This document shows, one piece after another, positions 58,669 to 61,396 of a stretch of DNA of 64,000 nt. The notes under the pieces are model-generated. The model was given only the letters and a program-made list of their open reading frames with translations, had not been told where the DNA came from and did no database searches. The stretch covers positions 11,887 to 75,886 of the forward strand of contig JAFGND010000035.1 of NCBI GenBank assembly GCA_016927185.1, given 5' to 3'. A program made the position numbers and the translations under genes. Origin of the DNA: Candidatus Coatesbacteria bacterium (lineage in GTDB: Bacteria; JAFGND01). Position 1 is the first letter of the stretch. Each line of letters begins with the position of its first letter.

Positions 58669-59043
58669 ATGCCACGAGCAATTAGTAGTCCAGTTAAAAA
58701 TCATAGACTGAAAAGAATAAAGAAACTTGCCAAAGGCTACTGGGGTGCAAAAAAGAAATTAAACAGGACGGTACAAGAAGCAGTACTTAGAGCACAAAGG
58801 TTTAGTCATTATGACAGGAAGAGAAAGAAAAGTGATTTCAGAAGGCTTTGGATAATGAGGATTAATGCGGCAGCTCGTATTTATGGTCTTTCTTATTCCC
58901 AGTTTATGGGAGGATTGGCAAAAGCTTCAATCGATCTGGATAGGAAAATACTTGCTGAAATTGCTGTTTCTGAGACAAAAGTATTTGAGGAATTGGCAAA
59001 CAAAGCCAAGGAAGCTTTAAATCAAACCTCAAATAAGGTGTAA
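58669..59043 (+). CDS. rplT: 50S ribosomal protein L20
   Basis: Translation [54 protein letters not shown]. Confidence 0.9.
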
Positions 59044-59048
59044 GAAAA

Positions 59049-59327
59049 ATGGATGATCTACCCAATCTGGAGCTTTTGCAGGAAAGGGTGGAATTGCTGG
59101 TAAAACAAATGGAACAATTGCAGGAAGAAAATATACTGCTTCGCCAGAAAATAATTCACTGCCTTAAGAATAATAATGAACTTACCAGTGAGAATACAAT
59201 ACTTGAGAATAAAATAAAGCAAGTGGAAGATCTGGAAAAAAGGGAGGAAATATTAAAAAAACGCTTGCAAAATATACTAGAAAAAATTAGAAAGGTAGAG
59301 AATGTTTACAAGGAGTTAGGAACTTAA
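59049..59327 (+). CDS. Small coiled-coil protein, possibly ZapB-like
   Basis: 92 aa, entirely heptad-repeat (LQERVELLVKQMEQLQEENILLRQK...). It sits immediately upstream of zapA. Confidence 0.35.
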   Translation: MDDLPNLELLQERVELLVKQMEQLQEENILLRQKIIHCLKNNNELTSENTILENKIKQVEDLEKREEILKKRLQNILEKIRKVENVYKELGT

Positions 59328-59330
59328 CTT

Positions 59331-59648
59331 ATGTCGAACAAAGTAAAAGTAACGGTTTATGGCACTGAGTACAATATTACCAGTGATGCTGATCCAGAAC
59401 ATATTTTAAGAATAGCCAAATACGTAGACCAACAAATGAAGAGAACTAGCGGATTAGTATCCTTTACTTCAACAACAAAGATTGCAATACTAACAGCTTT
59501 GAACATTGCCGATGAGTTGTATAGAGAAAAACTGCAGAACAGACATACTGCAAATGATCTTAATGAGAGAATTGGGATGATGGTTAAGAGTTTGGATGAC
59601 ATTTTAGAGAAATCTTCAACAAAAGAACCGATAAAGAAGAAGAAATGA
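59331..59648 (+). CDS. zapA: Cell division protein ZapA
   Basis: 105 aa. Translation KVTVYGTEYNITSDADPEHILRIAKYVDQQMKRT...ILTALNIADELY matches the ZapA family profile. Confidence 0.65.
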   Translation: MSNKVKVTVYGTEYNITSDADPEHILRIAKYVDQQMKRTSGLVSFTSTTKIAILTALNIADELYREKLQNRHTANDLNERIGMMVKSLDDILEKSSTKEPIKKKK

Positions 59649-59651
59649 TTT

Positions 59652-59836
59652 ATCCCTGCAGTGTTTGTGATGTTTCGGGTAATATTGAGATAACAGTTTG
59701 AAACTTGGGGATCTTTAAGTTTATATCTGTAGTGTTGAACCCTTTGTAAGGGATTACTGAACAGATAGACGGATACCCACCTGAGGTTTAGGTTTCAAAT
59801 TTCCGAACACACGGCACACGCGGGGATTTCTTTTGA
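59652..59836 (+). ncRNA. Candidate structured ncRNA (6S/SsrS-like?) between zapA and rny
   Basis: The 197-nt non-coding gap contains a 5' arm ATCCCTGCAGTGTTTGTGATGTTTCGG (59652-) and a 3' arm CCGAACACACGGCACACGCGGGGAT (-59827). These can form an imperfect ~20-bp closing helix (8 bp, 4 bp, 3 bp and 5 bp segments). The 3' arm is followed by TTCTTTTG. An internal helix AGTTTGAAACT/GGTTTCAAATT and a CCCTT-TGT-AAGGG hairpin are also present. Confidence 0.3.
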
Positions 59837-59845
59837 AAGGATTAA

Positions 59846-61396
59846 GTGGAATATATATATTATTTGATATCAGGGATAATTGGAGTTATTATTGGTTGTC
59901 TGGGCATATACTTCTATAATCATTTAAAGATTCAGGGAACAAAAAATCAAATTGCATTAATGAAGCAGGAAGCTGAAAGGGATCTCCAATCCAAGGAAAG
60001 AGACTATCTGCTAGAAGTTAAGGAAAAATGGTTTGCTGAAAAGGATATGCTGGAGAAAAAAATATTCAAGGAAAAAGAAAATTTACAAAATCTTGAAAAA
60101 TCACTTTTGCAGCAGCAATCAAAAATCGAAAGGAAGCAGGATTTCCTGAATAGAGATAGAGAGCAAATTTCCAAGAAAGAGAAGGAAATCAATTCCTTAA
60201 CAAAGAAACTCAAGGAAGAGGAAGCTAGATATCAAACTCTAATAAATCAGGCTTTAGCCAGACTAGAAGAAATATCCAATTTAAATCAAGAACAAGCCAA
60301 GAAGCTTCTGTTAGCTGATCTTGAAAATGAAGTCAGAAGGAATTCTGCTGATATGGAGAAGAGAATCATTGAAACAGCAAAAACAAATGCAGAAAGAGAA
60401 GCAAAGAATATTATTACATTTGCAATTCAAAGATGCAGCAGTGAGCAGGTAACTGAAACCACAGTTAGTGTTATCAGCCTTCCAAGCGAAGAAATGAAAG
60501 GGCGAATAATTGGAAGGGAAGGAAGAAATATTAGAGCATTTGAAAAAGCATCTGGAGTTAATGTTATTATTGATGATACGCCTGAGGCAATAACATTAAG
60601 TGCTTTTGATCCGGTAAGAAGGGAAATCGCAAGGCTTTCAATGGAAAAATTGATACAAGATGGAAGAATTCATCCTGCAAGAATAGAGGAAGTAGTCAAG
60701 AAGATAACTGAACAAATGGAAGTCAATCTTAAAGAAAAAGGTGAAGAAGCATGTTTTGAACTTGGTATAAGCAAGATCAATCCTTATATAGTTCGATTAT
60801 TAGGGAAACTCCATTACAGAACAAGTTATGGTCAAAACTGCTTATCACATTCAAAAGAAGTTGCATATCTATGTGGTTTTATGGCAGGAGAACTTGGATT
60901 GGATATAAATCTTTCTAAAAGAGCGGGATTGCTTCACGATATAGGTAAGGCAGTTGATTTAGAAATGGAGGGAACTCACGCAATAATAGGGAGTATACTG
61001 GCAAAAAAACATGATGAATCTAACAGTATTGTAAATGCAATCGCTTCTCACCATGAAGAAGAACCGCCTCTAATTGCTGAAGCAGTCTTGGTTCAGGCAG
61101 CTGATGCAATAAGCAGTGCAAGACCTGGAGCAAGAAGAGAAACTCTTGAATCATATATCAAGAGACTGACTCAGCTGGAAGATCTGGCGGAGAATTTCAA
61201 GGGAGTTGAAAAAGCATATGCAATTCAAGCAGGGAGAGAGTTAAGAATAATAGTCAAAAACGAAGATCTTGATGAAGCAGAGACATTCGTTTTAGCATCT
61301 ACAGTTGCAAGAAAAATTGAGGAACAGCTTGAATATCCGGGGCAGATAAAAGTCACCGTAATCAGGGAAATAAGAGCTGTTGATATTGCAAAATAA
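59846..61396 (+). CDS. rny: Ribonuclease Y
   Basis: N-terminal TM helix, a coiled coil, a KH domain ([26 protein letters not shown]) and an HD domain (LLHDIGKA). The start codon is GTG. Confidence 0.85.

Follow-up and report, generated by a model that had tools for sequence, protein, structure and literature searches.

The window analysed here is a stretch of 64,000 nucleotides from Candidatus Coatesbacteria bacterium, in which zapA (59331..59648, + strand; Pfam PF05164, E 3.1e-19) and rny, the gene for RNase Y (59846..61396, + strand), are separated by 197 nt (59649-59845). The stop codon of zapA ends at 59648, and the start codon of rny is a GTG at 59846. An earlier note on this DNA had singled out this gap as exceptional in a gap-poor region, and this holds: the tightly packed genes around it (rplT, an ORF encoding a coiled-coil protein of 92 aa, zapA and rny, followed by ymdB and folD downstream of rny) are spaced by 3-18 nt or overlap. 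No ORF of 40 aa or more is found in the gap (59649-59845), which is overlapped only by mechanical ORFs of 21 and 28 aa. By exact-sequence look-up the ZapA protein is identical to NCBI entry MBN1232649.1, and YmdB, L20 and PanC correspond to MBN1232651, MBN1232647 and MBN1232644, respectively, of the same Candidatus Coatesbacteria bacterium MAG.

The coiled-coil ORF between rplT and zapA (59049..59327, + strand) is ZapB-like by position. It gave no Pfam match at E <= 0.001 and a weak match to NCBIfam TIGR02449 (E 2e-4). Since ORFs that hold the same position in other genomes (loci L013, L037, L020, L033 and L085-L090) match the ZapB family PF06005, it probably encodes a divergent ZapB-like protein. 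RNase Y is recognised by NCBIfam TIGR03319 (677.9 bits, residues 4-516) and carries the Pfam RNase_Y_N, KH and HD domains. In its public gene call (P0001, 478 aa) the protein starts at 59960, 38 codons downstream, and lacks the N-terminal hydrophobic segment. Because TIGR03319 is aligned from residue 4, the form of 516 aa starting with the GTG at 59846 is more likely to be correct than the 478-aa call.

The gap is occupied by a gene for 6S RNA. We assign with high confidence the segment 59650..59830 (+ strand) to ssrS of Candidatus Coatesbacteria bacterium, an identity reached with the Rfam family RF00013, with an nhmmer profile and with a covariance model of our own (R1). The possible 6S/SsrS identity raised in the earlier note, for which a cmsearch with RF00013 had been named as the check, is borne out by a full-length match (model positions 1-187 of 187) on the + strand that fills the gap, with 59.4 bits against a gathering score of 46.4 and an E-value of 3.1e-9. 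This E-value covers the whole 64-kb window and all 4227 families that were scanned at their gathering thresholds, and RF00013 was the sole Rfam match, on the + strand only. At these gathering scores the window (1-64000) is devoid of tRNA, rRNA, riboswitches and ribosomal-protein leaders, though an infC-rpmI-rplT cluster is present. The RNA is 181 nt long and non-coding, as expected for 6S RNAs (~180-200 nt). Its score is modest, since the homologues described below reach 55-112 bits and most of them lie above it. The model R1, built from a nine-sequence alignment that includes the window, scores the window at 115 bits, the window being one of its training sequences. Because the window had contributed to R1, a profile without it was sought: a leave-one-out nhmmer profile made from 17 homologues of other phyla recovered 59653-59827 with an E-value of 4.2e-11, the next best matches in the window having E-values above 6. 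The window RNA is thus a routine member of the 6S family that standard Rfam annotation would call, and, being recognised by the standard Rfam model, it is not a new kind of element.

The Rfam-aligned structure of the RNA is a rod composed of a closing stem, a central bubble (15 nt opposite 13 nt) and an internal stem with an apical loop, a rod with a central bubble being the defining shape of the 6S family (PMC8876501). Parsing of the RF00013 alignment gave 44 standard pairs out of 51, 4 non-standard ones and 3 opposite gaps. The closing (terminal) stem is an interrupted helix between 59652..59668 and 59811..59827 (+ strand), and 3' of it lies a U-rich tail, AUUUCUUUUG (59826..59835, + strand), which might be a weak terminator or a region of 3' processing; the long interrupted helix between the ends of the gap and the U-tract following it, both noticed earlier from the letters of the DNA, are confirmed. 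The downstream helix P2 is formed by a 5' strand at 59682..59691 (+ strand), with the core UUGAGAU, into which the predicted template of the pRNA runs, and a 3' strand, GUUUCAAAU, at 59792..59800 (+ strand). Positions 59686-59691 pair with 59792-59797 in the Rfam alignment, all as standard pairs, and 59682-59683 pair with 59799-59800. The central bubble, which the earlier note could not fold by eye, consists of AACAGUUUGAAACUU (59692..59706, + strand) opposite ACCUGAGGUUUAG (59779..59791, + strand), both unpaired in the Rfam-aligned structure. The motif CCCACCU (59776-59782, + strand) overlaps the first four bases of the 3' bubble strand. The internal (apical) stem extends over 59707..59778 (+ strand), with its apical loop at ~59744-59748, and the small GC hairpin that had also been pointed out corresponds to its apical CCCU/AGGG stem (~59740-59752, + strand).

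Folding of the gap RNA, another of the checks that had been proposed, showed a structure more stable than expected by chance: the minimum free energy (MFE) on the + strand is -59.4 kcal/mol, with z = -3.56 relative to dinucleotide shuffles, and 2 of 200 shuffles fold as well. The minus strand also folds well (z = -3.23), so that stability alone does not tell the strand, which is given by the + strand match to Rfam. The window folds poorly (-32.6 kcal/mol) when the consensus pairs of R1 are enforced on it, as the registers differ, and the parsed Rfam alignment was used instead.

To analyse conservation and covariation, the window and eight homologues were aligned with MAFFT (alignment A3, nine sequences). 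The invariant blocks of this alignment, CCCTG, GTGA, GG, CCCACCT (identical in 9 of 9 sequences) and C.CG.C, are all present in the window. RNAalifold, run on the nine sequences with no prior structure, produced two helical arms around an unpaired centre, with compensatory changes in 22 of the 37 consensus pairs. A search of 90 sources with R1 then rendered 19 copies; the Firmicute loci and L085-L093 had none. In the alignment of these 19 sequences, which was fitted to the model that included the window, 87.9% of the cells are standard pairs, as compared to 44-52% after shifting the 3' partners by 1-3 columns, and 25 pairs show changes on both sides, as compared to 10-18 with shifted partners; none of 500 column shuffles reached any of the observed measures. 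The helices of the closing stem are paired in 89.5% and 96.3% of the family alignment, with compensatory changes, and those of the internal stem (helices 4-7 of the consensus) all have changes on both sides. Helix P2 is paired at 56.6% in alignment A4, a figure to be read with the facts that R1 does not model P2 and that an extra U of the window shifts the columns. Of the 37 consensus pairs the window itself has 33, including 8 that are compensatory with respect to other sequences. This covariation is a property of the family across phyla, since the only other copy from the lineage (L004) is 100% identical. The outcome that, according to the earlier note, would have spoken against a structured RNA (no Rfam hit, and no conservation or covariation) is the reverse of what was found: an Rfam match, homologues in other genomes and covarying pairs.

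A sample of rny loci from other genomes, 35 from non-Firmicutes and five Firmicute controls, was scanned with Rfam. Full-length 6S RNA genes were found upstream of rny and on the same strand in 17 of the 35 non-Firmicute loci (for instance L013:2071-2252, L078:2253-2434 and L055:2015-2195) and in none of the five controls. The ORF directly before the 6S gene is ZapA according to Pfam in 14 of these 17 loci, rendering the order ZapA, 6S, rny, and in at least nine of the 14 a ZapB-like coiled-coil ORF is located just before ZapA. The loci bearing 6S belong to Desulfobacterota (in a broad sense), Acidobacteriota (L078), Myxococcales (L027), Nitrospirota (L007) and unclassified MAGs. The distance from 6S to rny in these genomes ranges from 66 to 1877 nt, sometimes with an intervening gene. 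In L033 this is the gene for 5-formyl-THF cyclo-ligase, which is the arrangement of E. coli. In L007, the Nitrospirota MAG, an ORF of 447 aa for an AAA+ ATPase (890-2233) separates 6S (254-435) from rny; by eye this protein looks RarA/MgsA-like, and rarA is known to flank the 6S genes of Lactobacillales/lactic acid bacteria (PMC8414754). The locus L022 has a fragment of a group II intron (D1-D4; RF02001, 88 bits) at 1332-1508, just upstream of 6S, and no ZapA ORF was found there, which points to a mobile intron having broken up the customary zapA-ssrS order.

The association with zapA has been described for beta- and gamma-proteobacteria, in which ZapB-ZapA-SsrS-(FAU1) is conserved and ssrS is found "always immediately following ZapA" (PMC7641849). 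The statement of the earlier note that ssrS of E. coli lies immediately downstream of zapA is correct, the order in strain K-12 being zapA, a gap of 41 nt, ssrS, a gap of 75 nt, and fau. Since the order zapA-6S recurs in other phyla and in E. coli, the 6S gene of the window holds the ancestral position after zapA.

The Coatesbacteria lineage is poorly sampled. The gap of L004 (Logan SRR13394437), being 100% identical to that of the window, carries no comparative information, and the nearest RNase Y proteins besides this identical copy are ~50-59% identical. A scan of species-representative genomes found at least 80 rny loci, with a best RNase Y identity of 54% and no Coatesbacteria relative among the matches listed. 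The top RNase Y homologues, P0002-P0004 (loci L001-L003), were discarded as sources of orthologous regions, because rny follows recA and recX in them (recA-recX-rny) and both zapA and 6S are missing. Loci L085-L091 were likewise considered as relatives carrying 6S and rejected: their RNase Y is 57-59% identical and synteny is full, but 6S is absent, the zapA-rny gap matching neither RF00013, whether at the gathering score or at E <= 10, nor R1. The gene order of these closest syntenic relatives is pheT-zapB-zapA-gap-rny-ymdB-folD, so that the slot between zapA and rny is not universally occupied by 6S.

In several of these loci the slot contains a conserved hairpin of ~107 nt (L085:2864-3000, L086:2803-3000, L088:2799-3000, L090:2813-3000). 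Its sequence has the form CCCCAC...GAUUUUGCUUUGG...CCAAAGCAAAAU...GUGGGG; the apex varies, and each side contributes ~10 nt to an internal loop. Next comes UUUUUCAUUUUUG, and behind it L086, L088 and L090 have another hairpin, which overlaps the ribosome-binding site of rny. The gap hairpin of the L085-L090 type could be a terminator/attenuator or an unrecognised small RNA that replaces 6S. Locus L093 (163-478; RNase Y 57% identical, 56% GC) has zapA and rny 37 nt apart, with no room for an RNA gene, and the slot is thus empty in some lineages.

The junctions of the 6S gene in the window are tight. The gene starts 1 nt after the stop codon of zapA and, with rny starting at 59846, ends 15 nt before the start codon of rny, in a spacer that also contains the ribosome-binding site AAGGA (59837-59841, + strand). 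Likewise, no more than 13 nt separate zapA from 6S in L020, L033, L065, L083, L076 and L072. A scan for sigma-70 promoters, whose consensus may not be that of this phylum, found no site upstream of the 6S gene. The two promoter-like sites that it did list, at 59833-59892, were taken as AT-rich chance matches, as transcription from them would start inside rny. Given the 1-nt and 15-nt junctions and the lack of a promoter-like site upstream, it is most likely that ribonucleases cut the 6S RNA out of a polycistronic zapB-zapA-ssrS-rny message. Cotranscription with zapBA followed by endonucleolytic excision is the simplest reading, and rny is probably included in the message. The 6S RNA of E. coli is likewise matured from a dicistronic ssrS-fau transcript (PMC7641849). 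As the enzyme that processes 6S, RNase Y is an obvious candidate, though a speculative one; in B. subtilis, no specific role of RNase Y in 6S turnover could be shown (PMC10578484).

The proximity of rny invites the reading that the element is a cis-acting structured 5' leader acting on RNase Y translation or mRNA stability, with an incidental resemblance to 6S. The element ends so close to the GTG that the ribosome-binding site abuts its 3' end, and L086-L090 hold hairpins in the same slot, one of them overlapping the ribosome-binding site of rny. We nevertheless consider a leader very unlikely, because the 6S covariance model matches over its full length and above the gathering score, and because the homologous RNAs lie 66-1877 nt away from rny, with intervening genes in L033 and L007, so that the conserved unit is the RNA together with zapA and not a leader fused to rny. 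Moreover, zapA and rny are 37 nt apart in L093 without any such element. The alternative of an rny leader as the primary identity, which had been put forward earlier, is thus unsupported. The structure could also be taken for an intrinsic terminator or attenuator of large size, in which a long hairpin with a U-run separates the zapBA and rny units and has no role in trans. The GC-rich base of the closing stem is indeed followed by UUUCUUUU, a U-run is present at the 3' end of several homologues, and the L085-L090 slot contains a hairpin followed by a U-run. However, a scan of 58900-60300 found no canonical Rho-independent terminator, only the closing stem with its U-run resembling one, and such a function would leave unexplained both the conserved motifs in the unpaired bubble (e.g. 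CCCACCU) and the covariation along a 180-nt rod with conserved internal loops. It is extremely improbable as an account of the element, and a 6S closing stem that doubles as a terminator would be compatible with the 6S reading.

There is finally the question of whether the Rfam match could be due to chance, or the gene be a decayed, non-functional remnant of 6S. The score of 59.4 bits is below that of most homologues, the central bubble prefers to collapse in silico, and there are syntenic relatives with no 6S in the slot. Against this, the E-value of 3e-9 applies to the window and 4227 families, an independent profile gave 4e-11, the helices are kept intact by eight compensatory pairs, and the RNA fills the gap precisely, in the right orientation and at the conserved site behind zapA. 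Chance is excluded by the two independent E-values together with the syntenic position, and the reading as a whole, remnant included, is hardly credible.

6S RNAs are small, widespread RNAs by which RNA polymerase is sequestered. They mimic an open promoter in the active site of the housekeeping holoenzyme and leave it as the polymerase makes a pRNA of ~13-14 nt on a template that runs from the 5' bubble into P2 (PMC8876501). The MFE fold of the window RNA lacks an open bubble: AGUUUGAAACU (59695-59705) is paired with GGUUUCAAAUU (59791-59801) in 11 contiguous bp, the stretch GUUUGAAAC (59696-59704) lying within the 5' strand of this helix. The duplex has an energy of -9.9 to -10.0 kcal/mol and z-scores of about -5.5 to -5.6, and 0 of 300-500 shuffles reach it. 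In the 6S-1 RNA of B. subtilis and the 6S RNA of Aquifex aeolicus, a pairing of this kind, between the P2 3' strand and the distal part of the 5' bubble, is termed "central bubble collapse helix" (PMC8876501), and the window resembles them in this predicted feature; the collapse helix of the window differs from theirs in that it beats P2 in silico even without pRNA. The potential for a collapse helix was significant in 6 of 18 homologues. A hairpin in the 3' strand of the bubble is weak in the window (-4.1 kcal/mol, z = -1.4), whereas E. coli 6S RNA, used as a control, showed the reverse: the 9-bp 3'-bubble hairpin that drives its release is strong (-13.4 kcal/mol, z = -5.5) and the collapse helix is absent (z = +0.4). 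Because the collapse helix is strong, the hairpin weak and the control opposite, we predict for the window 6S a release of the B. subtilis/Aquifex type, not one by an E. coli-type 3'-bubble hairpin. In silico the collapsed form of the free RNA is, as a thermodynamic prediction only, ~8 kcal/mol more stable than the Rfam-type open form, even in the absence of pRNA; if it held in vivo, the RNA would present no open bubble without help from the polymerase.

By homology with these systems, the RNA of the window would mimic an open promoter and bind the RNA polymerase holoenzyme containing the housekeeping sigma factor, and this binding would dampen transcription when nutrients are scarce. The 5' bubble strand and P2 may serve as the template of the pRNA, as they do in E. 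coli and B. subtilis (PMC8876501). When the RNA is aligned with the Rfam consensus, the putative equivalent of U44, at which the pRNA of E. coli starts, falls at about C59694. On recovery, a pRNA of approximately 5'-GUUAUCUCAAUAU would be made by the polymerase, which would begin near C59694 in the 5' bubble strand and proceed into P2. This synthesis would unwind P2 and free GUUUCAAAU to pair with the distal part of the 5' bubble, and the resulting 11-bp collapse helix could eject the RNA from the polymerase in the mode of B. subtilis 6S-1 and Aquifex.

A comparison with E. coli 6S RNA (ssrS, b2911, RF00013) shows a member of the same family, with the same rod and central bubble and a length of 183 nt as compared to 181 nt in the window. 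Both genes directly follow zapA in the same orientation and are themselves directly followed by a co-oriented protein gene, and both RNAs are likely matured from a polycistronic precursor (for E. coli, PMC7641849). In the window, however, the downstream gene is rny instead of fau/ygfA, and the spacings are 1 nt and 15 nt instead of 41 nt and 75 nt. As to processing, that of E. coli 6S RNA by RNase E/G is known, whereas the organism of the window encodes RNase Y next door. With respect to Firmicutes, the 6S genes of Lactobacillales are found near rarA (PMC8414754), while that of the window is near zapA. The zapA-ssrS-rny loci of Desulfobacterota, Acidobacteriota and Myxococcota (L013, L020, L033, L055, L065, L072, L076, L078, L083 and others) share with the window the order ZapB-like ORF-ZapA-6S-rny, the strand, the Rfam family and the motifs; several of them have the tight zapA junctions mentioned above and six the potential for a collapse helix. 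They belong to other phyla and differ in the distance from 6S to rny, which is 66-879 nt there and 15 nt in the window, and the window RNA is more AT-rich (41% GC) and lower-scoring.

A wider reading, which we offer tentatively and regard as doubtful, is that 6S RNA and RNase Y constitute a conserved functional unit in the didermic lineages that bear RNase Y (Coatesbacteria, Desulfobacterota, Acidobacteriota, Myxococcota). They would share a zapB-zapA-ssrS-rny(-ymdB) message, and RNase Y would mature or degrade 6S. If this were true, the level of a global brake on transcription would be coupled to the expression of the main endonuclease of mRNA decay, and this coupling would be extreme in the genome of the window, where the spacer of 15 nt contains the ribosome-binding site of rny. 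The unusually stable collapse helix would keep the free 6S RNA closed and inactive until RNA polymerase opens it.

Literature searches combining Coatesbacteria with 6S RNA, and ssrS with rny, found, in the library covered, no paper that mentions the first two together and no description of an ssrS-rny adjacency. Both the instance in the window and the zapA-ssrS-rny pattern are therefore counted as small additions to a known family. The present analysis documents a 6S RNA in the candidate phylum Coatesbacteria. It also extends to further phyla the ancient linkage between zapA and ssrS that was known from Proteobacteria, and adds to it a recurrent adjacency of ssrS and rny. Moreover, as a natural variant of 6S whose collapse helix is very stable, the RNA could inform the question of E. 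coli-type versus B. subtilis-type release.
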